From a virus: 64,000 nt of DNA. Positions 3,643-54,121 of this stretch are shown here, piece after piece. The DNA is taken from IMG/VR virus record IMGVR_UViG_3300010370_000027, one strand, 5' to 3'. The notes beneath the pieces were generated by a model. The model searched no databases, was not told where the DNA came from, and saw only the letters and a program-made list of their open reading frames with translations. The number at the start of each line of letters is the position of its first letter. Within the stretch, counting starts at the first letter, position 1. Both the position numbers and the translations under genes were made by a program.

Positions 3643-3945
3643 TTACTTCTTAGACGAAGTCGCGGCTGCAAGAACCTTCTTGAGGGCTGAAACAGCCTCT
3701 TGCTGAGAGATGCCCTTTTGAGATGCAATCTTCACAACATCTTGAATGAAAGAGGCAAGTGAATCAGTCGTAGTTATCTGATCCATCGTGGAGACTAAAG
3801 CCTTGTTTTGAACAAGCTTGCCAGTAGCCTTCTCAGCAGCTGTGTTTCCCTTGATGTCTTTCCCGACATTTGCCGAGTCCTCCTCGGCAAGCGCAGAAAG
3901 TTCTTCTCTTACTAATTTGCGGAGGGTAGACTCAGTTATCTTCAT
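3643..3945 (-). CDS. Putative internal head protein with conserved leader
   Basis: N-terminus MKITESTLRKLVREELSALAEE. ATAATTA motif 6 nt upstream (3952-3958). Confidence 0.65.
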   Translation of the reverse strand: MKITESTLRKLVREELSALAEEDSANVGKDIKGNTAAEKATGKLVQNKALVSTMDQITTTDSLASFIQDVVKIASQKGISQQEAVSALKKVLAAATSSKK

Positions 3946-3994
3946 GAGCCTTAATTATATGATACACATGAAATTAAAATTCTAGGATAGAGGC

Positions 3995-4462
3995 ATGAAC
4001 ATATTTGTCCTCTCAGAAGATCCAGAAGAGGCTGCACGGATGCAGTGCGATAAGCACGTGGTGAAGATGATCCTCGAGTCAGGTCAAATGCTGTGCGCAG
4101 CTCACGATCCAGGCTCAGCTCCCTGGAAGCGCACTCACTACAACCATCCGTGCACGGTTTGGACTCGTGCATCCACCGAGAACTACAAATGGCTGGCTGC
4201 ACACGGTCTCACGCTCTGCGATGAATACACGAAGAGGTACGGAAAGGTCCACAAGGCTGAAGAGGTATTGGTGTGGTGTGCGGAGAATATTCCGAAGAAT
4301 GTTCCTATCGGTAACCTCACGCCATTTGCAGTCGCAATTAAAGACACCAAATATCACCTAGGAGACGTTGTATCTTCCTACAGAGCCTATTACCTCGGTG
4401 AAAAAAGCAGATTTGCAAAATGGAGATATTGCGATCCTCCCGAGTGGTGGATTTCAGGGTGA
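3995..4462 (+). CDS. Pyrimidine-dimer DNA glycosylase/endonuclease V family protein
   Basis: Motifs MNIFVL..DKHVVKMILESGQML, H.NHPCTVW and YRAYY..EK..FAKW. Promoter-like TGATAC-17-TAGGAT lies 6 nt upstream. Confidence 0.85.
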   Translation: MNIFVLSEDPEEAARMQCDKHVVKMILESGQMLCAAHDPGSAPWKRTHYNHPCTVWTRASTENYKWLAAHGLTLCDEYTKRYGKVHKAEEVLVWCAENIPKNVPIGNLTPFAVAIKDTKYHLGDVVSSYRAYYLGEKSRFAKWRYCDPPEWWISG

Positions 4463-4492
4463 GACTATAAGTTCATGATCATACTTATGATC

Positions 4493-5155
4493 ATGAATGA
4501 TGCTAAACGATGGCGGACGCTAATCAAGCGCCTCGCGTATCTCAGGGCGGAAGCGTCTGAGGCGGTTGAGTCATTCGAAGAATCTGTTAGTGAGATAGAG
4601 TCAAGAATAGAAGAAAAAGAAAGGTCAGTCGTCATTGATCCAGACGACATCGTAGAAGGAAGCAAGATACCAGTCAACGAAACCTCCAAGCACATGACAA
4701 AATTCACGGGCAAGAGTGAAGAGAAGTCGTCTGGTGCAACAGAGACGAAGCAGGAATCAAAGATTGAGACTCCATCGATGGACGACAGCGGTGATGAAGT
4801 GAAGCACCACTACAAGCGCCTCTGGCGGGTCGTGGCAAAGCTTACACATCCTGACGCTGTAGGAAACAACGACGAGCTAATCACACTTTACAAAGCAGCC
4901 GCATCGGCGTACGAAAAGGACAGAAGAGACGAGCTCTTAGACGTGGCGTCTGAGGTGAACGCACAGTTAGAGAAGCCTCACCCAAAGATGTTTGAGGACC
5001 TCGACAAGAGGTGCAATCATTACGAGGCGATGTTAAGAAAGATAAGGGGTTCTGTGGCGTGGCAATGGAAGAACGCTCAAGAAGGAACGAAACAAGAGAT
5101 TATCGATCTGATTAAGTCAAAGAGGGAAGAAAAGGTAAAGCAAACCACTGAATAA
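4493..5155 (+). CDS. Protein with an internal DnaJ-type J-domain and N-terminal coiled coil
   Basis: YKRLWRVVAKLTHPD..LYKAAASAY is J-domain helix II, HPD and helix III. Start set at ATG 4493, 5 nt after ATACTTA (the ORF track starts at 4475). Confidence 0.75.
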   Translation: MNDAKRWRTLIKRLAYLRAEASEAVESFEESVSEIESRIEEKERSVVIDPDDIVEGSKIPVNETSKHMTKFTGKSEEKSSGATETKQESKIETPSMDDSGDEVKHHYKRLWRVVAKLTHPDAVGNNDELITLYKAAASAYEKDRRDELLDVASEVNAQLEKPHPKMFEDLDKRCNHYEAMLRKIRGSVAWQWKNAQEGTKQEIIDLIKSKREEKVKQTTE

Positions 5156-5185
5156 TTTTGTCTGTCGTGGAGATAATTAATCTTC

Positions 5186-5923
5186 ATGAATGAGAAGCTC
5201 TTAAAGAGATACGTTAGATCCATACTTCTAGAGATGTCTTACGAAGACGTCAAAACTTCTAAGGACCCGCTCGATTGGGTGGAAGCAGCTTTTCAAGATC
5301 CAGAAGAATGGAACACAAAAGATCCCTTCAGGGCAATGATAAGAGCTGCAAAAAGATTTGGTCTTGAAGAATTCGGAATGGGATCAAGCAGGTTCGTCTT
5401 CAACCTGAAAAACGGAAAAGTTCTAAAAATAGCAAGGAACAACAAAGGACTCGAGCAAAATAAGCTCGAAGCAGTAGCAGGTCGAGACCCACACGTTCAC
5501 TCTATTTTGGCTTCTGTTTATGATACTTCACCAGAATATGCGTGGCTCGTGGCTGAATTCGTAAATCCTCTCGAGGACGGAGAATATAAGGCTGCAGAAC
5601 GGGTGTGCGGAGTTGTATGGTCAGAAGTAAGACGCGTCCTCGGCTTGTCGAATAAATCTGAGATTGAATCGACAGTATCGCAGATAACAAAGAAGCTTGA
5701 GCCAGAAGAATCTCGAAACAGCAAGACAAAAGGTCAAACAGGATCAGACTGTCCAACAGGCAAAGAATTTCTCGAGAGTCTCGGAAGCTTCTTGGATCGA
5801 TATAGTGGAATGCTCACAGGAGACATCGAGAAGTTGTCGTCATGGGGAGTGAATGACAAAGGATGTCTCGTGTTACTAGATTACGGAATCACAAGAAAGA
5901 AGTTCGAAGAGCTTTATCGATAG
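5186..5923 (+). CDS. Protein kinase-like (PKL) fold enzyme
   Basis: Gly loop GMGSSRFVF, VLKIA lysine, QNKLE helix-C glutamate, hinge LVAEFV, catalytic loop GDIEKLSSWG and metal-binding LLDYG. ATAATTA lies 6 nt upstream. Confidence 0.75.
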   Translation: MNEKLLKRYVRSILLEMSYEDVKTSKDPLDWVEAAFQDPEEWNTKDPFRAMIRAAKRFGLEEFGMGSSRFVFNLKNGKVLKIARNNKGLEQNKLEAVAGRDPHVHSILASVYDTSPEYAWLVAEFVNPLEDGEYKAAERVCGVVWSEVRRVLGLSNKSEIESTVSQITKKLEPEESRNSKTKGQTGSDCPTGKEFLESLGSFLDRYSGMLTGDIEKLSSWGVNDKGCLVLLDYGITRKKFEELYR

Positions 5924-5982
5924 AATTATCCGAGTGTCAGGACCGTCGAATTAGATCGAATATTCTTCTACAGAACAAAAAC

Positions 5983-6018
5983 AAAAAGGAGGCCACCGAA
6001 AGGTGGCCTCCTTCTTTT
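5983..6018. terminator. Bidirectional intrinsic terminator between the kinase and major capsid genes
   Basis: 12-bp stem AAGGAGGCCACC-GAAA-GGTGGCCTCCTT flanked by an A tract and a T tract, between convergent genes. Confidence 0.92.
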
Positions 6019-6034
6019 CTCCTATGAGACGTTA

Positions 6035-7888
6035 TCAGATAACGTTCATGTCGAGGACGGTGACTGTTCCGTAGAAGTCCGAGCGAACGGTCTTCTTACC
6101 GTAGCGGGTCATGACGCCCTTGCGAGGTGTGAAGTCCTCAGGAGCGAAGATCGTCGGTGTGACGATGAGTGGGACGTATGGAGCGTAGACGTAGCCTGTC
6201 TCGAGGTAGCTGCCGCCCTTGTAGCCGACGAGGATCTTGTTACGTGAGAAGTAAGGATCCTTATAGACCGTGAAGCGGTTCGAGAGGGTACCGACTGCCT
6301 CTGCGCCGATGGTGAAGGGCGATCCGACCTGGCCCTCGCCGTCGAGCGAGAACTTAGGCTTGTAGAGGACCGAGGCCTCGAGGATTGTGCAAACGTCTGG
6401 TCCTGTGACGAGGAAGTTTGCCGATCCGCGGAGCGTCTTGCGGTGGATGGTGTTCGCGACGTCGATGATCGTCTCGATGAGTGTCTCGTACCACTCGCGA
6501 ACTGTACCTGTGAACTGTGGTCCGATCTGGTACACGTCTGTGAGTGCCTGGCGAGCGCCTGTCACCTTGTTAACGAAGCGACCTGGCGAGCGGCTCCAGT
6601 AGTAGTTGGCGCCGTTGGCCTGCGACACGAGGTCGTTGAGGATCTCGCGGTCGATTTCGAGGGCGATCTGCTCCGAGAGGATCGATGTGAGCTCGACTTC
6701 AGCGTCCATCGAGTGATAGGCGTTGAGGTCCTGTGCGAGTTCCGGCGACCACTTGGCGCGGAGCTTACGGGTCTCAGCTGTGATGCTGATGGCCTCGATC
6801 TTGATGTCGATCTCAGGGATCACTGGGGCTGGTGTTGCACCGAAGTCCGACTCGAACGAGGGGACTGTGACTGTGGCGCCGCTGTTTCCGTCGACCGAGA
6901 GGGCTGACGAGAGCGAGTACGAAACTGTACCAGCTGCAGCACCGGCTGAAAGAGCTGCACCGTTGGCGCCCTTGACGACCGTGAGGACGTGTGTGCCGTT
7001 GAGTGCGTCTGGGGTGAAGACCGAACCGCTCCAGTTACCGCGCTTGTTGAGGCGACGGAGGTTGAGGACTCCATTGCCACCCTGATATGTCTCTCCCCAA
7101 GCTGTCGCATTTGTGACACCAGCGAAGAGAGCGAGCTGGTTGACAGCAAGCTTGTCCATGTTCGAAAGACCGCTAATATCGACGATTGCGAAGGCCATGT
7201 CGAGGTCGTTGTTTGCGAGAGCGTTCTCGACCTGACCGTCGAACTCGGCGAAGCGAGCGTTCGATCCCGAGAACATTGCAGCAGAAGAAACTTCGAGGTT
7301 AGCTGCCCAGGTGTCGCCGTTGACTCCGCCCCAAGCACCGACCGTGAAGGTGAGGCCTGTTGCAGAACCTGTCACGCGGCTGTAGCCTGTGTTGACGAGG
7401 TCGTACATACCACCGGTGGCGAGCGATCCGCTCTGGACGCCTTTGCCGGTCGGGTTGTTGTAGAGCGACTGTCCGCGTGTGTATGTCGAACCTGTCTCAC
7501 CAGCTGGTGTTCCGACGTTCGAACCGTAGGTGTAGTCGAGATAGAAGATGAGTCCCGATGGGAGGCTCATTGGCTGGATCGAGACGAGCTCGTTGGCAAC
7601 GAGACCGCCGAAGACTCTGCGAACGATCGGGAAGGCGATGTTCGAGAAGCCCTGGATCTGACCCGAACCGGCGAGGTTTCCACCGCCGCTCGAGAGAGCG
7701 TTGCTCTCCTTGAGGACCTGAGCTGCCTGGTTCTCGAGGAGCTGGGCCATAACCTCGCGGCGTGTGCCGTCGAGGCCACGGAGGAGTCCTGTGCGGCTCC
7801 ACTTCTCTGTAAGACGTGCGCGCTCGGCTCCGACGTGCTTCTCGCGGATGCCCTGAGCGAGTTGTTCAAGACTAAAGTGCTTTGACAT
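6035..7888 (-). CDS. gp23: Major capsid protein, T4 gp23-like
   Basis: Motifs LVSIQPMSLPSGLIFYLDY, TRKLRAKWSPELAQDLNAYHSMDAEVEL, EIDREI, YAPYVPL, FTPRKGVMTRY. AGGAG SD and strong codon bias. Confidence 0.97.
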   Translation of the reverse strand: MSKHFSLEQLAQGIREKHVGAERARLTEKWSRTGLLRGLDGTRREVMAQLLENQAAQVLKESNALSSGGGNLAGSGQIQGFSNIAFPIVRRVFGGLVANELVSIQPMSLPSGLIFYLDYTYGSNVGTPAGETGSTYTRGQSLYNNPTGKGVQSGSLATGGMYDLVNTGYSRVTGSATGLTFTVGAWGGVNGDTWAANLEVSSAAMFSGSNARFAEFDGQVENALANNDLDMAFAIVDISGLSNMDKLAVNQLALFAGVTNATAWGETYQGGNGVLNLRRLNKRGNWSGSVFTPDALNGTHVLTVVKGANGAALSAGAAAGTVSYSLSSALSVDGNSGATVTVPSFESDFGATPAPVIPEIDIKIEAISITAETRKLRAKWSPELAQDLNAYHSMDAEVELTSILSEQIALEIDREILNDLVSQANGANYYWSRSPGRFVNKVTGARQALTDVYQIGPQFTGTVREWYETLIETIIDVANTIHRKTLRGSANFLVTGPDVCTILEASVLYKPKFSLDGEGQVGSPFTIGAEAVGTLSNRFTVYKDPYFSRNKILVGYKGGSYLETGYVYAPYVPLIVTPTIFAPEDFTPRKGVMTRYGKKTVRSDFYGTVTVLDMNVI

Positions 7889-7932
7889 GATTAAATTCTC
7901 CTAAAATAGTTGGTTGGTTTTAATTGAATCAA

Positions 7933-9921
7933 TTACTTGATTATTCCCGCCAAACGTGCCCAACGGTCAGACTCAAATCCCTCGTTGAGAGTATTGGTTG
8001 CCGATGCAGGACGTGCTGGGCGAGATGCTGAACCTATGACGCCACGATCGGTCGACTCCGTGATCTTCGTTGTCGATGCCGAGAGTGTCTTCACGAGGCT
8101 CTCATACACGAGCTTCACTTCACGCTCAGACTTAGCCTCGTCGAGTCTCTCTATGATTTCAGCCTTCTGGCGTTTTGTGAGTGACTCATTCTGGAGGAGC
8201 TTGTTTGTGAAGAGCAACTTCGCGTTGAACAGATTCGTTTCTGCCAACTTATTGCGGAGATCAGTCTCTGCCGCGGACGACTTCGGAGCGCCATTGAGGG
8301 CCTCTCCCTTGCGGGTTGCCTCTGCGAGCATACCCTTGAGCTTGTTGCAGCGAGCAACAGACTCGTTAAACTTGGTTGCGAAGAAGTTGTAGGCCTCCTG
8401 CATCTTCTTAGCCTGCTTCTTAGCCTGCTGCTTCTCCTGCATCTTCTTAGCCTGGGAAGCCTTCTTCTGGGCTTCCATCTGCTTCTTCTTGGCCTGCGTA
8501 GCCTTCTTCTTGGCTTCCGTCTGAAGATTTGCCTCTGCAGCGAGCTTTCGCTTGATCGATTCTACAGGCATATCAGGCTGAACATTTGGCTGCATAACCT
8601 TGGGATCATGTCCTGGGTGGGAGCGACGCTTCTCAGATTGATCCATGCCACCGTAGGCTTGATCCATCTCTGACTCATCCATCTCAGCTTCGTCTTGCTC
8701 GTCCATTTCTTCTGCCTCTGACCAAGCCTGATCAAGTTCGTCGAGTTCTTCCTGAGCGTCTTGCTCGTCCATCTTCTTGTCGTCAGAATCCTCTTCGGAC
8801 TCTGTGGTTAGCTCGACGTCAGTGAAGGGATCACCAAGATCGTCGTCTTCAAAATCATCAGAAACTTCGCCTGGACCGTGGCCCTTTTCAGCATTCTTTG
8901 GCATATCAGTCGCCTCGCGGATCGACTTCATGCGTGCAATCTCACGACGGAGCATTCCCTCGTCTATTTCAACGATTGTGTCGTCGCTGAGAGTCTTCGA
9001 CTCGAGAGCAAACGATTCTTCCTGTGTCTCTTCTTCATCACCGCCGAGATCAAGGTCGGCATCTTCTGACTCATCAGAACTTTCGTCTCCGAGGTCAAGC
9101 TCTTCGCCGCCCTCGTCGCCACCTGCTTCTTCAGCTTCGGCGCCGGACTCCTCACCCTCTTCGTCACCTGTGATAAGATCAACGCCGAGAGATTCGAGAT
9201 CCAGATCATCGGGCATGCCCGTGAGCTTTAATGTTACGTCTGCTTCTGAAAGTGTTTTGTGGTTTTTCTTCATTTTCTGCTCCGTGAGCTGCTTGAGGGT
9301 TGAATAATAATTTTCAAGAATCGACTCATAAGAGCTCTTCTTGGGGCAATCCTGCAGGTTATTCTGCAAGTACGAATACGTATCCTCTACTTCAGCAACA
9401 ATTGAAGAAAGTACGTCTTCAAAACCTTTAGATTCTCTAACAAGCTTTCCAGTCTTGCTGACTAAATCAATTTTCTTGTTGAGACCTTCCATCTTGACGT
9501 CGAAATTCGAATCACCAGATGAAGCCATTAAAACTCCGAGAGAATTAGCAGATTCTAGACTAAGCTCATACTCATTTCCGCAGCCATCGTCAGCCTTGAG
9601 TGCATCTAAGTCGAGAGTAACCTTTCCTTCCTCATCAGGAAGAGACATTGCTACCGCAGAAGAAGCTGCGTCTCCTACCTGAGGAGCTGCGGTGACAGGT
9701 GCAGTCTCAAAAGAATCAGGAGAAACAAGCGTGTTTTCGTCCTTTAAAATGTCTTCTGGGTCTGCTTCCATCTCTCCGAGCTCGCCGAGCAGTTGATTCT
9801 CGATGAGATCTCTTATTCGAGGTGTAACTGCCTCAAGAAGTGCTCTTTTTGCGTTATCTTCAGCTACTTCCTTCAGCTTCTTCACGTCTGCTAAGGCTTC
9901 TTCGTACAATTGCTTAGTCAT
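7933..9921 (-). CDS. Prohead core/scaffolding protein
   Basis: Directly upstream of the capsid gene. Acidic tracts, coiled coils, many L/I-x-E sites and C-terminus DRWARLAGIIK. Confidence 0.8.
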   Translation of the reverse strand: MTKQLYEEALADVKKLKEVAEDNAKRALLEAVTPRIRDLIENQLLGELGEMEADPEDILKDENTLVSPDSFETAPVTAAPQVGDAASSAVAMSLPDEEGKVTLDLDALKADDGCGNEYELSLESANSLGVLMASSGDSNFDVKMEGLNKKIDLVSKTGKLVRESKGFEDVLSSIVAEVEDTYSYLQNNLQDCPKKSSYESILENYYSTLKQLTEQKMKKNHKTLSEADVTLKLTGMPDDLDLESLGVDLITGDEEGEESGAEAEEAGGDEGGEELDLGDESSDESEDADLDLGGDEEETQEESFALESKTLSDDTIVEIDEGMLRREIARMKSIREATDMPKNAEKGHGPGEVSDDFEDDDLGDPFTDVELTTESEEDSDDKKMDEQDAQEELDELDQAWSEAEEMDEQDEAEMDESEMDQAYGGMDQSEKRRSHPGHDPKVMQPNVQPDMPVESIKRKLAAEANLQTEAKKKATQAKKKQMEAQKKASQAKKMQEKQQAKKQAKKMQEAYNFFATKFNESVARCNKLKGMLAEATRKGEALNGAPKSSAAETDLRNKLAETNLFNAKLLFTNKLLQNESLTKRQKAEIIERLDEAKSEREVKLVYESLVKTLSASTTKITESTDRGVIGSASRPARPASATNTLNEGFESDRWARLAGIIK
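8395..8517. repeat. Tandem QAKK-type coding repeats in the scaffold
   Basis: ctcctgcatcttcttagcctg occurs at 8395-8415 and 8434-8454, with further degenerate units. Confidence 0.75.
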
Positions 9922-9957
9922 GTTTACTCTTTCTTGCGTCTAACTGTTAACCATCTC

Positions 9958-9964
9958 TAAGTAT
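9958..9964 (-). promoter_or_regulatory. Putative late promoter ATACTTA for the scaffold-capsid operon
   Basis: One copy of a motif recurring upstream of about 12 genes (see findings). Confidence 0.65.
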
Positions 9965-9968
9965 AATA

Positions 9969-10532
9969 TCAAATCGAGGATTTTCCAGGCGTAAGTGAAT
10001 CTCCTAACACAGTATTGACACTTTCTTCACTTGGAGAACGTGTACCAGATCCCTCTGCTCCTGGTGTGTAGTTTGGTTTGATCTCACTTGGGGAAATATC
10101 AGGATTTGAATTTTTATCTATGCCGTCCACTCTAACAGTTCCAGGAGCTCCTGGGCCGGGGGATGTGACATCAGGTACGTATGGATTGGCAGGATCTCCA
10201 GGATTTCTCCAGGACACATCTGCGAGATTTGGCGCCTTTCCGTAAGTGAGATCAACACCCGATGGGAACATGCCCAAATCACCTGTCTGCATGCCAGACT
10301 CAGGAAGAAGTCCGTTCTGGTTATCTCTCGCTCTTTTTACGACAGATTCTGCGGCTTTTCCGTTCTCAGTCTGTGGATTAGAAGACTCTCCATAAAAACT
10401 AGCAATTCCTGATCTAAGGGCATTTGCCTTTTGATTGAAGAGTTTCCACAAAAGAGAATAGCGCGAACCAGCACTCGTAGTAGTGGCTGCGGGAACATAA
10501 GTTGTATATCTACCTTTACCTGGTGCGCTCAT
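9969..10532 (-). CDS. Pro/Gly-rich hypothetical virion protein
   Basis: In the head cluster with an AGGAG SD. Confidence 0.7.
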   Translation of the reverse strand: MSAPGKGRYTTYVPAATTTSAGSRYSLLWKLFNQKANALRSGIASFYGESSNPQTENGKAAESVVKRARDNQNGLLPESGMQTGDLGMFPSGVDLTYGKAPNLADVSWRNPGDPANPYVPDVTSPGPGAPGTVRVDGIDKNSNPDISPSEIKPNYTPGAEGSGTRSPSEESVNTVLGDSLTPGKSSI

Positions 10533-10553
10533 TGGACTGCTCCTGTTGACAAA

Positions 10554-10799
10554 TTAAATCTTCTTCGAAAGACGCTTCTTCGTCTCTTCGATCTTCGCGA
10601 GACGACGACGAAGACGAGTCTCCTCGATCTTAAGCGCCTTCATAAAATCAATGTGCTTCGCTGCAACCTTTTCGCTTCCGACCTCGTCAGCGTCGACCTC
10701 TTCTGTGTCTTTTGCTCGTTCTTCTGTCGACTCCATGTCGCCGAACTTGGCAACTTCCTCTTCAATGATTCTACGAAGTAACTGGCTTGTAAGTTTCAT
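10554..10799 (-). CDS. Small head-associated protein with conserved leader
   Basis: MKLTSQLLRRIIEEEV from ATG 10799 with a GAGAGG SD. ATACTTA at 10826-10832. Confidence 0.75.
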   Translation of the reverse strand: MKLTSQLLRRIIEEEVAKFGDMESTEERAKDTEEVDADEVGSEKVAAKHIDFMKALKIEETRLRRRLAKIEETKKRLSKKI

Positions 10800-10849
10800 A
10801 TCAAAAAATCCTCTCACTTAAACGGTAAGTATATTCAAGAAGAAAAAAT

Positions 10850-11275
10850 TTACTTTTTTAGAGGTGAATCCATGAAAGCAAGTGATGCCCACTTGGATGT
10901 TACATCATCTCCAAAAAGGTCTTCCGGGTTTGCCCTGGCGACGACCTGTTCAACTAATCCCCCACCTGCTGCTGCAGGAACGGGTGATTTTCCGTCGTTC
11001 TGCAAAAATGCAGGAAGTGTAGAAGCTGCAGTATCTGCAAAGATGTCTTCCATCACTTTATTTCCTCCTGCCTCTCTCCTTATTGTCTCTTTTAAACTAG
11101 GAGAAAACATCTTTTGAGGAGGTGGTTGCCTTCTAAGATTGTCTGAAAGAGGCGCGCTTGGCTGACGATTCACAACACTTTTTGGAGAGTCAGCATTTAA
11201 ACCCAGGCCTTCACCCAATATTTCAACAAGGCATTCTTTGACAATAGATTTTAATTCAGATTTTGTGATCTTCAT
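10850..11275 (-). CDS. Head-associated protein with conserved leader
   Basis: MKITKSELKSIVKECLVEILGE. C-terminal SKWASLAF resembles the scaffold end DRWARLAG. Confidence 0.75.
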   Translation of the reverse strand: MKITKSELKSIVKECLVEILGEGLGLNADSPKSVVNRQPSAPLSDNLRRQPPPQKMFSPSLKETIRREAGGNKVMEDIFADTAASTLPAFLQNDGKSPVPAAAGGGLVEQVVARANPEDLFGDDVTSKWASLAFMDSPLKK

Positions 11276-11287
11276 CCCGTTCAACCT

Positions 11288-11899
11288 TTACTTCTTTAAT
11301 GTCAAAATATCGTTAACAATTCTATCAATTCTATCCGACTTATTGAATATGTTTCTTAATTCATTCGAATTAATGGTCCTACCCTCAGGAAGCATAAATG
11401 CTCCGGGCGTAGAAGGCTCTGAAACGTAGTCCCAACAGATTAGCTGGAAGTCATCTTGAACGATGTGATAGTCACCTTGCTTCTTGACTGATCCTACACC
11501 TCGCGAGGAGATTCCGAGCTTGACTCCGCTCTCGACGAGGGACTGAAGTATCTTGCCAGAAGGTGTATCCAATAGCTCCACAGTACCATAAACCACCCCT
11601 CGATCCAGGTATGCTTCCTTAATGACGTGAGACACGTTCTTGAGGTTGACCACGGATGAGTCCGGGTGGTCCAACTCACCGAGAGCGCGGTTCTCAGCGA
11701 TGAACTTCTGATAGTTACGGACTTCACGCTCGAGAACAGCCATCGGGTAGATGCGACCGTTCTGGTTGAGTGTGTCGGCCTTCTGAAGGATTCCCTTCAT
11801 CATGACCTTACCGTTGTTCTTCTCCCGCGACTCCTTGATCATTTCAGGAGTGTAGTCGAAGACTTCGTATGAATTGAGTAGCTTGAGGTCTTGTGCCAT
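11288..11899 (-). CDS. gp21: Prohead core protease, T4 gp21-like
   Basis: NQNGRIYP, GELDHP (His), GISSRGVGS (Ser), WDYVSEPS (Asp). The AAGGAG SD supports ATG 11899. Confidence 0.95.
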   Translation of the reverse strand: MAQDLKLLNSYEVFDYTPEMIKESREKNNGKVMMKGILQKADTLNQNGRIYPMAVLEREVRNYQKFIAENRALGELDHPDSSVVNLKNVSHVIKEAYLDRGVVYGTVELLDTPSGKILQSLVESGVKLGISSRGVGSVKKQGDYHIVQDDFQLICWDYVSEPSTPGAFMLPEGRTINSNELRNIFNKSDRIDRIVNDILTLKK

Positions 11900-11904
11900 G
11901 GTGT

Positions 11905-12759
11905 TCACTCCTTAGATGCCAGTTCGTCGTTGAGTTTTGCGTAGAGCATGAATCGGGTAACTGTCGAGTCGTCGATTGAATCAAGATTCTCTTCGAGGAG
12001 AACGTTCTTTGTCTCAGAGAGTTTGTTCTTGAGGTAATCGTTCTGCACTTCTGACTCGTAGCCATCGATGAGTCCAACAAGATCATTCTTTATTTCTTGC
12101 AGCTTCATCTTTATTGAAGTTTGATCGTCTGACGCTGTCGAATACGCGTAAGCTTTGATGAGAGACTTCTGATGCTCGTTAAGAACACCGTTGTACTTCT
12201 CATTGAGCTTCTTGGTCATGACTTTCATGAGAAGTCTTGCAGATCCTGAAGTATCTTCTGAAATTGAAGTATCTGGTTTCTGTACCTTTTCTGAAACAAG
12301 ATGCTTCATGATGTGGTCTTCATACTGAGCAACCCTGTAGAGGTCCTTGTCAGACATAGTCCACTCGTTAATGAGGGTCTGAATTGTGGCAAAGAGTCTG
12401 TATTCGCTGATGTGCTGATCATAAAAGTCTTCATCATTCAAAATGTGATTGATGTTTCGAATGAGAATTGACTTCTCCCTATCAAGTTTTTGAATATCAA
12501 AAGAACCTACTGCGTTTTTTGCTTCACTCAAAATTGAAGCCGCTGTGTGCTCAGAGGCAACTGTAGTCTTTACGAGAGCGTTCATTAGACGAAATTCTTT
12601 GTAAATTTCTGTGCCTTGTCTAAAGTGCTTCTTTAAGATCTTGAGGGCGGCGGAAGACTTTTTCTTGTTATCTTCTATGATTGACTTAGAAATAGTCCTC
12701 ACGAGAAACTCGTATATGAGGAGGCTGTTTCTTCTCTTGTTATGCTTATTTGCGGCCAT
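11905..12759 (-). CDS. Head-module hypothetical protein
   Basis: 284 aa, tightly packed between the portal and protease genes. Confidence 0.8.
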   Translation of the reverse strand: MAANKHNKRRNSLLIYEFLVRTISKSIIEDNKKKSSAALKILKKHFRQGTEIYKEFRLMNALVKTTVASEHTAASILSEAKNAVGSFDIQKLDREKSILIRNINHILNDEDFYDQHISEYRLFATIQTLINEWTMSDKDLYRVAQYEDHIMKHLVSEKVQKPDTSISEDTSGSARLLMKVMTKKLNEKYNGVLNEHQKSLIKAYAYSTASDDQTSIKMKLQEIKNDLVGLIDGYESEVQNDYLKNKLSETKNVLLEENLDSIDDSTVTRFMLYAKLNDELASKE

Positions 12760-12760
12760 T

Positions 12761-14770
12761 TCATTTGCTCCCGTCGTCGTCTATTATGAGGACTTCTCTA
12801 TGTTCGCGTGCGTCTGCCTCATCAAAATTATCTGATTCGCTGAGGACTTGTGGAGTTTGTGTAGAATTTTTAGTATTTTTTTGAAACTTTGAAGACAGAG
12901 ACATGTTTCTCAAAGAAGAAATAACGTCATTTCCAACGGGCGTCTTATGTGATGTCTTGTTGGCAGATTCTCCAAAGGGATTTCTTACGTAAGAATTCAT
13001 CCATTCTCTGTCGTAAGGATCAGAGTAATTTTTGTCATTTGCTCTTGTCATTCTATTGAAGTCAGGAGAATGAGTCTTAGAAGGTCCGTGATGTCTGATC
13101 CTAGATCTATTGTAGAGAGCTCGGTCGAGTTGCTTTTGAGCCTTCACAGGTACTTCGACATCCTTTAAAGAAAATTTAACTGGGACGTCGTCGTCATCTG
13201 GGTCTTCTCCGGCAGTGAGGAGATCAAGATAAGGATTCTTCTGAGAAGCGTCGTCTCCTGCAAAGAGATCTTCTGCTTCCCCGCCTTCTTCCTCGCCTGC
13301 CTCAGGCTCTTCGGTATCTTCAGGCTCCTCTGATGATTCACTGCCAGAATCAGGCTCAGCACTTTCTATGGCCTGATCTACAAGTTTCTCTCTAAGGCGT
13401 TGATCATCAATTTCCTTGCACTGATCGTCATTAAGTCCCCAAATCTCCTTGCGGATAAATTCCTTAGACATCTGACCTTCAGGTGCAGTACCTGCAATCT
13501 CGAACTTAGATCTCCACAATTCCAACTTCTGCTGCTGAGCAACAGTCGATGGATTGGACATACGCAAAGCAAAATTCTGCAGATCTTCAGAATCAAAGCC
13601 ATGTGCATAAAGATGAATTATTGCCAATTTATTAAGCTCAGCAACAATTGTCTTTTGAATAACGTTGATAGTCCTGGAAAATCTGATGTCTTCCTGAGCA
13701 AGTGTTGCTTTGCTTGAAAGAGATTCGTCATAACCGAGATATGCACGTGGAATCTTAAGGGCTGCAAAGAGCTTCTTCTGAATGTAGGCCACATCTTCAA
13801 CAGCCGCAGTGTTCTGACCGCCTGCAAGTGTATCGATTCTCGTACCGGAATCTCCGCCGCGGACAGGTATAAAATAGTCCTCATCGACAGAAAGTGGGTT
13901 GTAACGAAGATCGACTCGACCTGTTGAACGATCAATGACTTGTGAGGAACGAAGGTTCTTCCTTTGCTCCTCGACGTACATAGGAACGTTCTCAGGCGGT
14001 ATGTTGGCCACGTCGATGTAGAAGACGCGCCTTTCTGGTGCGCGAACAACTCGGTAGACCAGCATGGCGTCCTCGATGAGGATCAATTGACGCCAAATCC
14101 TGCGGGCGGGTTCGATCACTGAGGAGCCATAGGGAAGAAACATGTCGTTTCCCAAGAGCCTGAAGTGTGTAACCTCCCAGTTCTCCAGCGTTCTATTGCC
14201 GAGAGTGACCCATCGGTAACGAACTGCCATGGGATCGCTAGGATCGTAGTTCTCCTCGCGCTCGATCTCGTTCACCGGGATGGGGAAAGCACTGATGACA
14301 CCATGCTCCGGTGACACGTCGTTATAGAGGAACATGTCACCGTACTTGACAAGATTTCTTACCCAGGACCTGAGGTTGAACTCCACATTGAGTGTGTTGT
14401 AGAAGAGGTCCTCAAGAATCTCTCTGATCTTCTCGTTATCCGAGTAGATGTGGAGGACTCGTCCCTTCTCGTCCTGTGCACATGTCTCGTCAGCATAGAT
14501 GTCCAGGGCCGCCGCCAATTCAGGAGTGTATTCCATCTCAGCGAAATCTTGATAACGCATGAGACGCTCTGAAAGATTGTAGGCATTAGCCGTTATAGTG
14601 GCATATGTTGGCGCCATCGACTTCTGAAATAACAAAGCTCCACTGCTCTTTGTTTTATCTGCCACAGCAACAGTAGTATCGAGCGCCCTGATCTTTCTCT
14701 TGACAACAGGACCACTTCGAAATAGCTTTGTTAATTTCTGAAAGATGTTTTGGTCTTCTTTTTTCGCCAT
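12761..14770 (-). CDS. gp20: Portal protein, T4 gp20-like
   Basis: EDAMLVYRVVRAPERRVFYIDV, EDYFIPVRG, IDTLAGGQN, DVAYIQKKLFAALKIP, EDIRFSRTI. Long acidic C-terminal extension. Confidence 0.96.
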   Translation of the reverse strand: MAKKEDQNIFQKLTKLFRSGPVVKRKIRALDTTVAVADKTKSSGALLFQKSMAPTYATITANAYNLSERLMRYQDFAEMEYTPELAAALDIYADETCAQDEKGRVLHIYSDNEKIREILEDLFYNTLNVEFNLRSWVRNLVKYGDMFLYNDVSPEHGVISAFPIPVNEIEREENYDPSDPMAVRYRWVTLGNRTLENWEVTHFRLLGNDMFLPYGSSVIEPARRIWRQLILIEDAMLVYRVVRAPERRVFYIDVANIPPENVPMYVEEQRKNLRSSQVIDRSTGRVDLRYNPLSVDEDYFIPVRGGDSGTRIDTLAGGQNTAAVEDVAYIQKKLFAALKIPRAYLGYDESLSSKATLAQEDIRFSRTINVIQKTIVAELNKLAIIHLYAHGFDSEDLQNFALRMSNPSTVAQQQKLELWRSKFEIAGTAPEGQMSKEFIRKEIWGLNDDQCKEIDDQRLREKLVDQAIESAEPDSGSESSEEPEDTEEPEAGEEEGGEAEDLFAGDDASQKNPYLDLLTAGEDPDDDDVPVKFSLKDVEVPVKAQKQLDRALYNRSRIRHHGPSKTHSPDFNRMTRANDKNYSDPYDREWMNSYVRNPFGESANKTSHKTPVGNDVISSLRNMSLSSKFQKNTKNSTQTPQVLSESDNFDEADAREHREVLIIDDDGSK

Positions 14771-14828
14771 TTTATTCTCGCTGATCCATTAAGGGATCAG
14801 CCCTAAGTTTTTTTAAAATACAACAAAA

Positions 14829-15119
14829 TTACTTCTGCGCTTTAAGAGTTACTTTTTGCGCTGAAGGTTTTGTTGCATCGACATATTGCATCGGAGAGGC
14901 AACAATTCTATTGAGAATCTGCTCTAGGCCATCAAGATTTCCTCCAAGCTCGGCCTTAGCTTTTTCGCTAGCGCTCTCCTTAAAAGACTCGATAGCTCCT
15001 AAAAGTTTGGTAGCAGCTCCCATAATCTTAGAGGCAGAGTCATGGTCTGCGCCTTCATTAAGAGACTCTATCTCTTCGCGAATTATTCTCTTAAGAGTAT
15101 TTAGATTAATCTTTGACAT
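14829..15119 (-). CDS. Small head-associated protein with conserved leader
   Basis: MSKINLNTLKRIIREEIESLNEG. GAGG SD and TTATTTA at 15141-15147. Confidence 0.75.
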   Translation of the reverse strand: MSKINLNTLKRIIREEIESLNEGADHDSASKIMGAATKLLGAIESFKESASEKAKAELGGNLDGLEQILNRIVASPMQYVDATKPSAQKVTLKAQK

Positions 15120-15217: not shown

Positions 15218-16834
15218 CTATCTAAAAAGCCAAGAAAAGTCTGATACGTCGACGTGCTTTATGTCCTCGGGCTTTTTCGCTTTGTGTACATTTTCTGGTG
15301 TGAATCCCTGTATCTGGGCATTTGGGACAGGCCGCACTTGATTGACTCCGCCGGGCAGGTCATTCAAATTTCTATTTCCTACTGCTGTCGCTTTTAGCAT
15401 TGCCATGGCCATTGCCATGCCCTGAGTATCTCCACCGCCCTCGCCTGCAGCGAGCCAAGTTCCAATAGCTAGACTCATGATAAGGTCGTCGTGGGCATCT
15501 TTGGAAGCCTGAGCTTTTGCACCATTCCAGATAAAGGCCTGCAATTGATCAAAAAGACGTTGAGAGTAAGTTTTTAGCCTTGAATTTCTTATTGATTCTT
15601 CAAGCTTTGTCAGTATCTGAGTCCTAGTCTTGGTCTGTGTCGAGAATCCAGGCACTGATTCTGGGTCTGAAGGCTTGTATCCAAACAAATCTCCCCCATT
15701 ATTGTGATAGTACAAAGCAGGGTATCCTTCATCTCTAAGCTTGACACAAGTAAAGTATCCGAACGTGTTTTGTTCTGGGCATATCAAGGCATTGTTGTAA
15801 CGCCTTCCATAAGTAGAAAGAAGCTCTGCAAGCCTATCGGGAGGTATTTTCCCCATGAATTCTGCACACACTTCGCACGATTCGTAGTCTATGACATGAA
15901 AAGTTGAATAGTCAGAAGCATCTCCTCTTGCGACATCTGCAGAAATTATATACTTGTGCCCTTGCTCTGGGTTCTTCCAGATCCAGACTCCATTCTGTGG
16001 CCCTTCTTTTAGATTTGGCGGTCTAATAAGACCTCGAAGTTTTTCAAACTCAGAAGGCTGTAGAAACGTGTCACCGGACGAAACGAAGTCACATAAAAAC
16101 TCTTGCGCGATCTGACGCTTCGTGAGGTTTCTGGTCTCTTTGTTGAACCAATCTTGGTCGTGTTCTGGGTGGACGTCCCATGGGAGTCTTATAGGATTGA
16201 AGTCATTTGCACCAGTCTCGGCTTCTGTCCACAGCTTGTAGTACTGACCTCCCACGCCGTTTGGAGTGGACAGGATGATAGCAGAACCACCGGTTGAGAG
16301 TGTTGGATAAAGAGACGTCCAAATCTCATCGAAGTCTCTAATGAATGCTGCCTCGTCTACGATAAGTAGCGCTAATGCTTCAGAACGACCGGCGTCAGGA
16401 GATGTTGGAACAGCAGTTATTGTTGAGCCATTATCAAAACGAATTGACTGCTTTGTAGGTTCAAACTTAGTCAACAGAAGCCAAGGAGGAAGACCATCAA
16501 GCATGGTCTTTACTTTCTTGATGAAGTTAATTGCTGTGTTAAGCTTAGTTGCAATGACAAGAATGTTCTTGTCCTTTTTAAAAATTGCATACCAAACAAC
16601 ATAGGCAGCGGAGACCGTAGAAAGTCCCAACTGCCTAGACTTGAGAACAATGTTAAATCGATGCTGTTGAAACTGTTTTACACAATCGTTCTGGAAATCA
16701 TATGTGTCGAAGGGGATAAGACCTCTCAGCTGATGCTGAATCTTGCAGTACTTCTTCATAAAGTACGTTGGATCTTTACCGCACTTTAGTATCTCTGCTA
16801 CTACCGCCTGTCTTGAAGGAGTCGTTGTTGTCAT
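15218..16834 (-). CDS. gp17: Terminase large subunit, T4 gp17-like
   Basis: KSRQLGLST (Walker A), LLIVDEAAF (Walker B), STPNG, and nuclease motifs ISADVARG and HDDLIMSLAI. Confidence 0.96.
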   Translation of the reverse strand: MTTTTPSRQAVVAEILKCGKDPTYFMKKYCKIQHQLRGLIPFDTYDFQNDCVKQFQQHRFNIVLKSRQLGLSTVSAAYVVWYAIFKKDKNILVIATKLNTAINFIKKVKTMLDGLPPWLLLTKFEPTKQSIRFDNGSTITAVPTSPDAGRSEALALLIVDEAAFIRDFDEIWTSLYPTLSTGGSAIILSTPNGVGGQYYKLWTEAETGANDFNPIRLPWDVHPEHDQDWFNKETRNLTKRQIAQEFLCDFVSSGDTFLQPSEFEKLRGLIRPPNLKEGPQNGVWIWKNPEQGHKYIISADVARGDASDYSTFHVIDYESCEVCAEFMGKIPPDRLAELLSTYGRRYNNALICPEQNTFGYFTCVKLRDEGYPALYYHNNGGDLFGYKPSDPESVPGFSTQTKTRTQILTKLEESIRNSRLKTYSQRLFDQLQAFIWNGAKAQASKDAHDDLIMSLAIGTWLAAGEGGGDTQGMAMAMAMLKATAVGNRNLNDLPGGVNQVRPVPNAQIQGFTPENVHKAKKPEDIKHVDVSDFSWLFR

Positions 16835-44759: not shown

Positions 44760-46667
44760 ATGAATTTTAAAGATCAGATCTTTATAAATCCAAATAAACT
44801 AATCAGAGATGATACAGAAGTAGTATTTGTAGCTGATCTATTTGAAGAAGATTACGCTGGTGGTGCAGAGATGACATCGGAAGCGATAATTCAAAGATCA
44901 CCCTACAAGATTCAAAAGATCTACGCAAAAGATGTCAATCTTTCAGTATTGAATCAAGGACTTAAAAAGTTCTGGTTATTTGGTAACTTTTCTCAAATGA
45001 ACCCAGAGCTAATTCCAAGCATCGTTGCAAATCTCAAATATTCTATTCTTGAGTACGACTACAAGTATTGTAAGTTTAGATCTCCCGAGAAACATCAGGT
45101 TTCTACAGGACTTCTTTGCGACTGTCACAATCAGATGAATGGAAAACTGATATCAGCTTTCTACTACGGCGCTCAGTCTATGTGGTGGATGTCAGAGAAG
45201 CAAAAAGAAAGATATCACACTCTTTTTCCTTTTCTTGCTGAAAAAGACAACATCGTTTTATCTTCTGTATTCTCCAGAAAAACTCTTGGAATTCTTAAAC
45301 TTTTGAGAGAGACTATCAAAGAAGATGAACGTAATGGTTGGATTGTTTTGGGATCTCAGTCGTGGGTAAAAGGATTTGAGGCAGCAAAGACTTGGTGTGA
45401 AGAAAATAAGAAAAACTATGAAATAGTTTGGGATGTTCCTTATGAACAGCTCTTGGCAAAAATGGCTGCGGCAGAAGGATTTGTCTACTTGCCTTCAGGC
45501 GGAGACACATGTCCAAGAATGGTCATAGAAGCAAAACTTTTGGGATGCAAACTTCATATTAATGAAAACGTTCAGCACAAAGATGAAACATGGTTTGCAA
45601 CAGATGATTTGGATTCGATCGAAGAGTACCTAAGTGTATCACCAGATCTTTTCTGGAAAGCGATAACTAAAATTATGAACAAGAAGCCTACGATTAGTGG
45701 TTACATCACTACTTATAACTGTGAAAAGCAGGGATACCCATACGAGCAATCTATCAAATCCATGCTTGGATTTTGTGACGAAGTTTGTGTTGTAGACGGC
45801 GGTAGCACTGACGGAACTCTAGAAAATCTCGAGAAGATCTCCAGACAAGATCCTCGTCTAAAAGTAAAAAAGGTACAAAGAGACTGGTCTCACCCAAGAC
45901 ATGCTGTTTTTGACGGTATGCAGAAGGCAGAAGCAAGATCTATGTGCACGTCTGAATTTTGCTGGCAGATGGACTCTGACGAAGTTGTTCACGAAGAAGA
46001 TTATCAAAAGATTGTAGACCTCTGTAGCAAATTCCCCGCCAATGTAGAAATTCTTTCACTTCCAGTCATAGAATACTGGGGAGGACCAGAAAAGGTTCGA
46101 GCAGACATTCAGCCCTGGAAATGGAGACTGAGTAGAAATCTTCCTCATATCACGCACGGAATACCCTCACACTTGAGGAGAGAAGATAAACTAGGTGTTT
46201 ATGCTTTGCAAGGTACCGATGGCTGTGACATGATTCACAAGGTAACCGGAGAAATTATCAATCATTTGACTTTTCATACGGAGGAGTCAGAAAGAGTAAG
46301 AATTGCTGCTGTCTCTGGAAATTTGGAGGCAATCTCTGTTTATCAAGACTGGTTCAACAGAGTTGTTGAAAATATACCTGGTGTTCATCACTATTCTTGG
46401 TATAACATGTCAAGAAAAATGAGACTCTATAGAGACTACTGGACACGTCATTGGAATTCTCTTTTTAATGGTTCTCTTGAAGACACATCTTCAACGAATA
46501 TGATGTTTGACGTGCCTTGGTCAGAAGTCACCGAAGAAATGATAGAAGAAAGAGCAAAATTACTCACTGAAAAAACAGGCGGATGGATTTGGCATAGAAA
46601 GTGGGATGGTCGATCAACACCACACATTGTTGTAAAAAAGACGCAACCAAAGATAATGTCAAGCTAG
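44760..46667 (+). CDS. Bifunctional glycosyltransferase (GT-B/GT4 fused to GT-A/GT2)
   Basis: N-half KGF..DTCPRMVIEAKLLGC. C-half ISGYITTYN..VVDGGSTDGT..QMDSDE. Confidence 0.88.
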   Translation: MNFKDQIFINPNKLIRDDTEVVFVADLFEEDYAGGAEMTSEAIIQRSPYKIQKIYAKDVNLSVLNQGLKKFWLFGNFSQMNPELIPSIVANLKYSILEYDYKYCKFRSPEKHQVSTGLLCDCHNQMNGKLISAFYYGAQSMWWMSEKQKERYHTLFPFLAEKDNIVLSSVFSRKTLGILKLLRETIKEDERNGWIVLGSQSWVKGFEAAKTWCEENKKNYEIVWDVPYEQLLAKMAAAEGFVYLPSGGDTCPRMVIEAKLLGCKLHINENVQHKDETWFATDDLDSIEEYLSVSPDLFWKAITKIMNKKPTISGYITTYNCEKQGYPYEQSIKSMLGFCDEVCVVDGGSTDGTLENLEKISRQDPRLKVKKVQRDWSHPRHAVFDGMQKAEARSMCTSEFCWQMDSDEVVHEEDYQKIVDLCSKFPANVEILSLPVIEYWGGPEKVRADIQPWKWRLSRNLPHITHGIPSHLRREDKLGVYALQGTDGCDMIHKVTGEIINHLTFHTEESERVRIAAVSGNLEAISVYQDWFNRVVENIPGVHHYSWYNMSRKMRLYRDYWTRHWNSLFNGSLEDTSSTNMMFDVPWSEVTEEMIEERAKLLTEKTGGWIWHRKWDGRSTPHIVVKKTQPKIMSS

Positions 46668-46682
46668 AAAGTCTAAAAAGAA

Positions 46683-47396
46683 ATGAAGATTATCGACATA
46701 AGAAAAAAGCTGATTGATCTAGGGACTTCTGTAGAGAATGTTGCTCTAGGAGATTTCGATATAATTGGAAGATTTACTGCTGAAAGAAGTAGAGGTCAAG
46801 AAAGTGAGCTCTATAGAAAAGTCGGTGCTTTCTATAGATCAAATTACGAGAGAGGAATTCTAATAAGCGAGCTTATCAAGAAATACAAGATAGAGTCAAT
46901 GCTTGAGATAGGATTCGGAAGAGGATATTCAACTTTTTGCGCAGCAAAAGCTTTTAGCGATGCGGGAATAAAGGGAAGAATTGTAACGGTTGACCCTAAC
47001 TTCGATGAGAATCACATAAGAAACTTACAGTCTGTATTCCCTTCAAGCTGGTTTGATTGCATTACTTTCATGAAGGGTACTTCCACTCAAGCACTCCCGC
47101 AAATCAATGAGAAATTTGATCTTGTCTATATCGATGGAGATCATTCGTATGAAGGGACTAAATTTGACTGGGAGATGACTAAGGACAAGTGGAACAAGTG
47201 CATATTGTTCGACGACTATCATATGCCCACAAAAAATGATCCCGGCATACAATGCAGAGATCTAATAGACAGTATTGAAGATGCTACAAAAGAGCTGATC
47301 ATAATGGATAGAAGAATATTCTTCGACGACCGAAGAATACCGGACGATCAAGTCGATTATGGTCAAGTTTTGATGACAAAACCGGAGCTACTATGA
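46683..47396 (+). CDS. Class I SAM methyltransferase (Methyltransf_24-like)
   Basis: MLEIGFGRGYS, FDLVYIDGDHSYEG, LFDDY. Confidence 0.88.
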   Translation: MKIIDIRKKLIDLGTSVENVALGDFDIIGRFTAERSRGQESELYRKVGAFYRSNYERGILISELIKKYKIESMLEIGFGRGYSTFCAAKAFSDAGIKGRIVTVDPNFDENHIRNLQSVFPSSWFDCITFMKGTSTQALPQINEKFDLVYIDGDHSYEGTKFDWEMTKDKWNKCILFDDYHMPTKNDPGIQCRDLIDSIEDATKELIIMDRRIFFDDRRIPDDQVDYGQVLMTKPELL

Positions 47397-48118
47397 AGTC
47401 TAACAACTTCGTTTTTGTAGCACCGATGTTCAATGCATCGGAAACTCTACCTAGAATGATGCACTCCTTGTATGGTCAGTCTTACGATAACTGGAGATTG
47501 GTACTAATAGATGATGTATCTAACAAGGATCATAGCGAAGCTGCAAAAGAAACAGTCAGAAAATTCGAAGAATTAAAACCAGGTAAAACAACAGCCATTT
47601 GGAACGACACTAAAGAATGGGAAGTCTCTAATGTTCTAAAAGGAATATCGATGTGTAATGATGAAGACATAGTCTGCAGAATAGATGCGGATGATTGGCT
47701 TACAGACTTAGACGGTCTTGCTATCATCAATTACACTTACGAGAACACAAAGTGTGACATTGCCTGGACTGCACATCGATGGAGTTTTTCAGATAAGAAC
47801 ATTAGCGGACCAATGTCAAATGATGCAGATCCTTATTCTCACCCGTGGGTATCAAGTCATCTAAAAACATTTAGAAAGAAACTTTTAAGAGACGTTAAGG
47901 ACGAAAACTTTAGGGGCGAAGACGGAAATTACATAAGGCGAGCAGGTGATCAGGCAATTTATTTGCCCGCCTTAAGAAATTCTAGCAATAGAGTTTTTAT
48001 TCCAAGAGTAATGTATCACTACACGATTAAAGACGTTCCTGAAACTTATCAGACTGATGATGCAAGGTTTCAAAGAGACGAAGCTGTCTTCCTAAGAAGC
48101 AGAGGCTACGTAGAATGA
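47393..48118 (+). CDS. GT2 glycosyltransferase
   Basis: PMFNA..SLYGQSY..LIDDVS..RIDADDWL. Confidence 0.9.
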   Translation: MKSNNFVFVAPMFNASETLPRMMHSLYGQSYDNWRLVLIDDVSNKDHSEAAKETVRKFEELKPGKTTAIWNDTKEWEVSNVLKGISMCNDEDIVCRIDADDWLTDLDGLAIINYTYENTKCDIAWTAHRWSFSDKNISGPMSNDADPYSHPWVSSHLKTFRKKLLRDVKDENFRGEDGNYIRRAGDQAIYLPALRNSSNRVFIPRVMYHYTIKDVPETYQTDDARFQRDEAVFLRSRGYVE

Positions 48119-51232: not shown

Positions 51233-51256
51233 AAGATTGTTAATATAGTTACTTTT

Positions 51257-52156: not shown

Positions 52157-52162
52157 GAAAAA

Positions 52163-54099: not shown

Positions 54100-54121
54100 A
54101 AATAGTTTATACTTAGACAAA

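Follow-up and report, generated by a model that had tools for sequence, protein, structure and literature searches.

In phage T4, the prohead protease gp21 cleaves its substrates after L/I-x-E, and a 10-residue stretch at the start of the internal protein IPIII, the capsid-targeting sequence (CTS), suffices for packaging (PMC9026906, PMC3012670). The same protease removes the CTS of IPII and IPIII (MKTYQEFIAE) and of IPI, together with the propeptides of Alt and gp24, and reviews have already proposed that T4-like phages load varied proteins by means of such tags (PMC9026906, PMC3012670). Propeptides are also cut by gp21-like proteases from head and inner-body (ejection) proteins of phiKZ, 201phi2-1 and SPN3US (PMC9026906, PMC5694885). 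Moreover, the Dar anti-restriction proteins of phage P1 enter the head through their N-terminal regions (PMC9024508). Here, a 64,000-nucleotide stretch of DNA from a large, T4-like and uncultured phage of fresh water, IMG/VR virus record IMGVR_UViG_3300010370_000027 (the window), is examined for a leader shared by the N-termini of otherwise dissimilar proteins. This leader is probably a lineage-specific and longer propeptide of the CTS type, which would target proteins to the prohead core and work with a gp21-type protease.

A shared N-terminal leader

Four window proteins, all on the minus strand (starts 3945, 10799, 11275 and 15119), begin with the consensus MK[IL]T-x3-L[RK]-x-[IL][IV]-x-E-E, and all four N-termini are present as described in the initial annotation. 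They are given below, with scores from a hidden Markov model (HMM) of the leader.

3643..3945, minus strand: p3945, 100 aa; leader residues 1-21 (nt 3883-3945), ending L19-A20-E21; HMM 35.8 bits
10554..10799, minus strand: p10799, 81 aa, head operon; leader residues 1-16 (nt 10752-10799); HMM 32.5 bits
10850..11275, minus strand: p11275, 141 aa, head operon; leader residues 1-22 (nt 11210-11275); 61 orthologues
14829..15119, minus strand: p15119, 96 aa, between the terminase and portal genes; leader residues 1-22 (nt 15054-15119), ending L20-N21-E22 followed by G; HMM 33.8 bits

A regular expression for the nine-residue core, composed after the sequences had been seen, has four matches in the six-frame translation of the 64-kb window, all of them at residue 8-10 of open reading frames started by Met. 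For comparison, 80 related loci, mostly from freshwater metagenomes, were fetched from IMG/VR through the protease, and the whole sequence of two large relatives was examined: G001 (297,894 bp, with terminal repeats and complete) and G002 (278 kb). In the window, G001 and G002 together (640 kb; 808,158 residues in six frames), the leader HMM gave 48 matches of at least 9.5 bits, as against none in reversed and none in shuffled sequence. The start Met carries 44 of these 48 (4 in the window, 17 in G001 and 23 in G002). Over all loci, at 7 bits or more, 252 matches are N-terminal, 18 internal and one C-terminal. The leader therefore occurs far beyond chance and is essentially an N-terminal feature. 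It is a genuine shared N-terminal element, and much larger in extent than first seen. Enrichment at N-termini, which the initial annotation had set as a test, is strong; the HMM search of relatives that it had suggested returned many N-terminal matches on unrelated genes (17, 23 and about 20 per genome).

An ATG-anchored alignment of 40 leader genes has high information at the first two codon positions of conserved residues and almost none at the third, as far as codon 16. DNA upstream of these genes shows no alignable conservation. With positions 1 and 2 conserved and position 3 free, selection acts on the leader peptide. It could still be argued that a translation-initiation or recombination cassette is conserved at the nucleotide level with the peptide as a by-product, as an AAA or AAG second codon is a common translation enhancer and a promoter-like motif stands 11-13 nt before some ATGs; the free third positions and unalignable upstream regions put this nearly out of the question.

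Two weaker resemblances gave no HMM signal. The copy that had been read inside the scaffold (EIDEGMLRREI, nt 8938-8970) has no HMM match, and the sole match in that protein, at residues 619-624, scores -0.5 bits, so that the supposed copy is noise. The leader-like start of the capsid protein (MSKHFSLEQLAQGIRE) remains an unproven resemblance.

Leader anatomy and family conservation

Within the leader, Glu14 stands in an [LIVM]-x-E in 32 of 40 cases, where the background rate is 2% per position. Another [LIVM]-x-E with its Glu at residues 19-42 is found in 63% of leaders versus 34% of control N-termini. The initial annotation had most leaders followed by L-x-E; this applies to p3945 (LAE21), p11275 (LGE22), p15119 (LNE22) and a kinase-like protein described below (LLE16), and p10799 has an internal I-x-E14 only.

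The families conserve these positions. Among the 61 orthologues of p11275, residues M1, K9, K13, E14, C15, E18, E22 and G23 are invariant, and the approximately 35 residues after G23 are hypervariable. The 34 orthologues of p15119 show no variation at I13, E15, E16 and E22, and almost none in L-x-E-G. For the p11275 family, AlphaFold2 predicts a confident helix at residues 5-23 (predicted local distance difference test, pLDDT, 85-88); residues 24-58 are modelled as a disordered linker, which leads into a helical C-terminal domain. In p10799, which has 60 orthologues, the leader is accompanied by an acidic stretch and by a C-terminal helix of basic character.

The invariant Cys15 of the p11275 family could point to a recognition sequence for a peptide-modifying enzyme, as in ribosomally synthesized and post-translationally modified peptides (RiPPs), for instance a radical S-adenosylmethionine (radical-SAM) enzyme. 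However, Cys15 is confined to this one family, and Radical_SAM (PF04055) is absent from five leader-rich genomes including a complete one, with 14 of 14 positive controls matched. A radical-SAM-linked tag is excluded by the lack of such an enzyme in the five genomes, and a RiPP-like role in general is very improbable.

A side observation concerns the p15119 family, whose starts MAKIGISRLKKIIREE and MSKINLNTLKRIIREE (window 15054-15119) are resembled by the start of the T4 gene 24 product (L112), MAKINELLRE, maybe by chance. These first 10 residues of gp24 are its propeptide, cut after Glu10.

The head module and its protease

A T4-type head module lies on the minus strand at 6-17 kb of the window, as judged from Pfam and PHROGs matches. 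In addition to the leader genes it contains the following.

6035..7888, minus strand: major capsid protein, gp23 family (PF07068, 2.4e-77)
7933..9921, minus strand: acidic scaffold-like protein, 662 aa, between the portal and capsid genes
11288..11908, minus strand: prohead protease, T4 gp21 family (Peptidase_S77; PF03420, 1.2e-26; phrog_207, 5e-51)
11905..12759, minus strand: conserved 284-aa protein without the leader, between portal and protease; candidate core protein
12761..14770, minus strand: portal protein, gp20 family (PF07230, 4.3e-76)
15218-16834, minus strand: terminase

Three leader bearers are encoded within this operon, beside the protease, scaffold and portal genes, and the p11275 gene directly follows that of the protease. 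By contrast with these, p3945 lies outside the operon, 2 kb past the capsid gene and beyond three plus-strand genes; an orthologue is present in L002. The claim that bearers also occur outside the head cluster is borne out, as many lie far from it.

The association of a gp21-type protease with L/I-x-E in the leader, noted at the outset, stands: the genomes encode the protease and the leader carries the motif. On sequence evidence, the window thus has an S77 protease, a gp20/gp23-type head module and a shared leader with L/I-x-E, as expected of the T4 type. The protease at 11288-11908 would presumably remove the leader. The capsid protein has a predicted maturation site with the same motif, V-L-K-E61 followed by S (nt 7706-7714 encode L59-E61). 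LKE[SA] is kept in all capsid orthologues, at about the place where T4 gp23 has L-T-E65 followed by A. Moreover, [LIVM]-x-E is dense in the scaffold-like protein (4.2 per 100 residues) and in the 284-aa protein (4.6), with a range of 3.9-4.6 over scaffold, 284-aa protein and protease, as against 0.9-1.6 in the capsid, portal and terminase proteins.

The protease was found in 5 of 5 leader-rich genomes tested. Additionally, a degenerate DNA pattern of the leader, which is independent of the protease, matches at least 120 stretches of IMG/VR contigs. Among the large contigs found by this pattern alone, S77 is encoded in 7 of 9, among them 3 of 3 with a completeness of at least 90%; no leader-bearing genome of that completeness lacks it.

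As to the neighbours, a 187-aa protein is encoded between p10799 and the scaffold-like gene. The closest isolates are Flavobacterium phage immuto and Microcystis phage Mel-JY01, at about 40-45% identity in the capsid and portal proteins. From its position, length and similar N-terminus, the 284-aa protein is apparently common to both phages, and it is a possible prohead-core protein without a family assignment.

Bodies behind the leader

No similarity was found by BLASTP among the bodies of the four window proteins, and when three families with 34-61 orthologues are compared by hhalign, only the 16-22 leader columns align. The initial description of dissimilar bodies, as opposed to full-length homologues, thus held for the core families. 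In G001, 17 bearers fall into 14 body clusters, and in G002, 23 fall into 21, even at E below 0.05. The bearers span lengths of 35 to 308 aa.

In relatives, genes of the p3945 type are flanked by two conserved genes, and a divergent family in this slot keeps the leader. BLAST splits the genes of this slot into five "families" (clusters 3, 4, 5, 10 and 11), which between conserved flanks had the look of cassette swapping. On inspection they share the C-terminal motif LG-x2-F-x-KLM-x3-P-x-D ... LKK and are therefore a single fast-evolving family; the slot had been overstated as evidence of swapping, which is rejected here. It follows that BLAST counts overstate the diversity among small helical bearers.

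By extension, all bearers might belong to one large, fast-evolving family of small helical proteins that have diverged beyond recognition except at the N-terminus. The five slot clusters with their common motif fit this, as does the fact that most bodies are small and predicted helical. It is nevertheless improbable: deep family profiles align in the leader only, the 17 genes of one genome yield 14 clusters even at the permissive threshold, lengths vary widely (35-308 aa), and the bodies include an enzyme similar to HAD phosphatases and polynucleotide kinase (PNK) as well as, in metagenomic bearers, peptidoglycan-binding and EF-hand domains. Whole-protein paralogy is excluded by these sequence comparisons for the core families and is possible for some small helical bearers.

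Among the metagenomic bearers, Pfam recognised few bodies, namely those with EF-hand and peptidoglycan-binding domains. The clearest enzyme among main-class bearers is a 303-aa leader protein (G001:C1 165413-166321; L089:5413-6321, plus strand) with a HAD-type phosphatase or PNK-like body and an FDFDDT motif, which is the probable source of matches to DUF2608 and phrog_415. Another G001 protein, of 308 aa (G001:C1 192342-193265; L090:12342-13265, minus strand), begins with the leader and contains another full copy at about residue 92, and the part after the second leader matches a separate leader gene in G002. Similarly, the metagenomic proteins P0002, P0006, P0009, P0010 and P0014 consist of tandem modules that each open with an MK leader. 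Such tandem-leader proteins are possibly cargo polyproteins or gene fusions.

A kinase-like protein and a second leader class

The initial annotation had also seen a variant of the leader on a kinase.

5186..5923, plus strand: protein-kinase-like-fold protein, 245 aa; class-2 leader residues 1-16 (nt 5186-5233), LLKRYVRSILLE ending L-L-E16

This product is modelled with a bilobal protein-kinase-like fold (AlphaFold2, pLDDT 79.8). All Foldseek matches of about E 1e-2 or better are kinase-like, namely APH(2''), MTR kinase, PRPK, choline kinase and CDK2, with low template-modelling (TM) scores of about 0.35. Its Gly-rich loop (G66/S68/R69), K81 and D232-Y-G234 (the D-[FY]-G motif) are invariant among homologues.

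The main leader HMM has no match to its N-terminus. In 34 homologues the start reads [LI][LI][KR]-x-Y-[VI]-[KR]-x-[IV]-L-x-E16, with E16 at least 90% conserved, and two homologues begin just after E16. An HMM trained on this family only gave 7 matches of at least 10 bits in three genomes, versus one in reversed and none in shuffled sequence, and most non-self matches are N-terminal, or nearly so, in other proteins. The conserved start and the other N-terminal bearers, taken with the missing match to the main HMM, thus define a second and weaker leader class; the kinase does have a leader-like conserved start, and it is not the main leader. The class-2 leader, LL[KR]-x-[YF]-[IV]-[KR]-x2-[IL]-x-E, may play the same role as the main leader on larger proteins, the kinase-like enzyme among them.

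A class-2-like helix stands at the very C-terminus of five proteins, for instance SENLLKSYVRLILA followed by a stop codon, with weak scores of 7-12 bits. The five proteins are located at G002 225934 (plus), G001 168584 (plus), G001 53247 (minus frame), G001 132535 (minus frame) and L065 15759 (plus). These are hints that C-terminal versions of the tag may exist. In T4, Alt and gp21 have C-terminal propeptides.

An upstream promoter-like motif

ATANTTA is found in the 60 nt before 16 of 44 leader genes (36%) versus 101 of 719 other genes (14%), at a random expectation of about 1.5%. Its occurrences at genes named above are as follows.

3952..3958, minus strand: promoter-like ATAATTA, 13 nt before the p3945 ATG
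5173..5179, plus strand: ATAATTA, 13 nt before the kinase-like gene
9958-9964: ATACTTA, 43 nt upstream of the scaffold-like gene start
10826-10832: ATACTTA, 33 nt upstream of p10799

The motif additionally precedes a tail-region gene of the window. Most leader genes had been placed just behind a late motif; in the window this applies to three of five (p3945, the kinase-like gene and p10799) and fails for p11275 and p15119. The T4 late promoter consensus is TATAAATA, and ATANTTA as a sequence fits a late-type promoter, without proving one.

Of the 16 leader genes with ATANTTA, 9 have the start of the motif 11-13 nt ahead of the ATG and no intervening Shine-Dalgarno sequence; another group has it 26-54 nt upstream. 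The 11-13 nt spacing suggests leaderless or very short-leader late mRNAs. Elsewhere in the window, positions 44760-64000 (plus strand) form a long same-direction block of sugar-modifying genes, two of which (starts 51257 and 54122) have ATANTTA 12-13 nt upstream.

Spread across phages and metagenomes

Leader genes number 17 in the complete 298-kb G001 and 23 in the 278-kb G002. LR756508, a 484-kb uncultured phage with a capsid protein 39% identical, has about 20 N-terminal leader copies in its head-region stretch, and its leader is a regular 22-mer ending in [VIL]-L-x-E. The leader HMM has no match in T4, Mel-JY01 or PA5oct, and weak matches only in immuto. Pseudomonas phage PA5oct had been a candidate for a leader-bearing cultured phage; its tblastn match, to the C-terminal end of a 399-aa structural protein, is spurious.

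When 1.84 billion cluster representatives were searched with a profile of residues 1-30, 3,394 proteins matched at E of 0.001 or less. The best 150 of these 3,394 all have at least two leader copies, since multiple copies raise the score, and 141 start with a copy. They fall into two kinds: tandem multi-module proteins with 2-3 MK-leader modules, and a few unrelated acidic-repeat proteins. The latter (P0001, P0003, P0004, P0005 and P0013; 875-1146 aa) have up to 8 scored repeats of L-T-S-D-D-L-R-S-I-I-R-E-E-L (10-11 matched stretches in the library search), and the N-terminus of P0005 weakly matches DUF4064, a family of membrane proteins. Considered as scaffolds, they were rejected as unrelated look-alikes of the leader. 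The ten top-scoring proteins that were looked up are all metagenomic, and the leader motif strings had no match in the literature text searched.

Arrays of 3-4 leader-starting genes, 230-400 nt apart, occur in L143, L159, L184, L193 and L197, an arrangement similar to the variable internal-protein locus of T-even phages. In LR756508.1 (145793-149413 and 156507-158102), the portal match is in three pieces over 3.6 kb and the protease appears as two S77 segments in a 576-aa frame, possibly by inteins or insertions in these head genes. Furthermore, two small head-module proteins of phage immuto (L110, 737-1036 and 7346-7573) both start with MEN-x-FD...K, which may be that lineage's own shared leader.

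Proposed function of the leader

Several lines of evidence argue for a CTS-type propeptide. These are the T4-type head module with its S77 protease, the built-in [ILV]-x-E with Glu residues invariant in the p11275 and p15119 families, and the same motif in the capsid protein. The helix is followed by a disordered linker, three bearers lie in the head operon, and ATANTTA is enriched upstream of leader genes and precedes the scaffold gene as well. Leader-only profile alignments, the 14 and 21 body clusters, the HAD/PNK-like enzyme and the arrays of small genes, as in T4, fit unrelated cargo behind one tag.

From these data we infer packaging, binding, cleavage and ejection of the bearers along the following route. 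Proteins opening with the amphipathic helix MK[IL]T-x3-L[RK]-x-[IL][IV]-x-E-E would be synthesized late. The helix would bind the assembling core, made of the acidic scaffold and the small leader-bearing core proteins p11275 and p10799, and the bound proteins would be enclosed upon closure of the gp23-type shell. The gp21-type protease would then cut after [ILV]-x-E14 and/or the downstream L-x-E at about residue 22, releasing the mature protein from the core. Core components would be degraded, and the remaining cargo would stay in the head and enter the host with the DNA.

A number of observations weigh against such a propeptide. Co-occurrence with S77 is weak evidence, as it is expected for any trait of the clade. 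The leader lacks sequence similarity to the T4 CTS, its HMM finding nothing in T4, which makes "distinct" a fair word in the initial annotation for this tag. p10799 and p11275 are of the same size as T4 gp67 and gp68, respectively, and hhalign was negative for both as homologues. Only 63% of leaders have the second site, and the residue after Glu14 is usually Glu, which the protease may or may not accept. Pfam and PHROGs recognised almost no functions among 44 + 145 bearers. The leader-like repeats of the unrelated, putatively membrane-anchored acidic-repeat proteins indicate that the helix is not unique to phage cargo. Finally, each genome has 17-27 bearers, of which many are remote from structural genes and just a third carry the late-type motif; some bearers may not be late or not packaged.

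Some of the same facts suit a different role, in which the helix is retained and serves docking or oligomerisation with a partner outside the core, such as an adaptor of the tail or baseplate, a chaperone or some structure inside the infected cell, with x-E motifs incidental to an amphipathic helix. The motif is that of a generic charged amphipathic helix with similar repeats in cellular membrane proteins, many bearers are remote from head genes, and the late-type motif reaches just 36%. Such a role is unlikely in view of the three bearers in the head operon beside the protease, the Glu held invariant in an exact [ILV]-x-E register with Gly after E22, the capsid maturation site with the same motif, and the propeptide-like succession of helix and disordered linker.

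For the CTS-type propeptide, a broader version can be offered tentatively, as a possibility below even chances. A two-class address system may send about 5-7% of phage genes to the capsid, including the kinase-like protein, the HAD/PNK-like phosphatase and the tandem multi-module proteins. The effector proteome would then perhaps be far larger than that of T4, loaded through a helix common to small scaffold-core proteins and represented in thousands of metagenomic families.

Significance and comparison with known systems

If the CTS-type propeptide is correct, the proteins injected by uncultured large T4-like phages could be listed from sequence only. Such proteins would likely be anti-defence or host-takeover factors, apparently dozens per genome and thousands of metagenomic families. 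A second, longer and sequence-distinct tag would also be available for loading foreign proteins into T4-type capsids. Additionally, the principle of a portable tag with an L/I-x-E cut would be ancient, the tag having changed along with the head core between lineages.

The likeness to T4 is manifold. As with the CTS, a short N-terminal amphipathic leader with a hydrophobic-x-Glu end stands on unrelated proteins. The head module has gp20, gp21, gp22-like and gp23 components and a capsid maturation site with the same motif, and the bearers include small tandem genes and are encoded both within the head operon and elsewhere. The differences lie in the leader and its use. It has 16-22 residues here versus 10 in the CTS, with up to three nested x-E sites, and 17-27 bearers per genome versus a handful. 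Small core proteins here appear, from their sequences, to share the leader with cargo. Furthermore, the CTS is present twice in T4 in DNA-identical copies, whereas the leader copies here differ at synonymous sites.

Phages of the phiKZ type are likewise large and have many head-internal proteins cut after Glu at redundant sites by a diverged gp21 homologue, the cutting being a prediction in the present case. However, their sites are S/A/G-x-E and a single shared leader is not described, whereas here the sites are [ILV]-x-E and the leader itself is conserved. The P1 Dar system is alike in having head-packaged, injected accessory proteins that need N-terminal determinants, as the bearers would if packaged. 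It differs by hierarchical, protein-specific incorporation without one portable leader, and by another head type. Compared with these systems, and with an idea already anticipated in the T4 literature, the gain is one of scope and of a new sequence class, not of a new principle.

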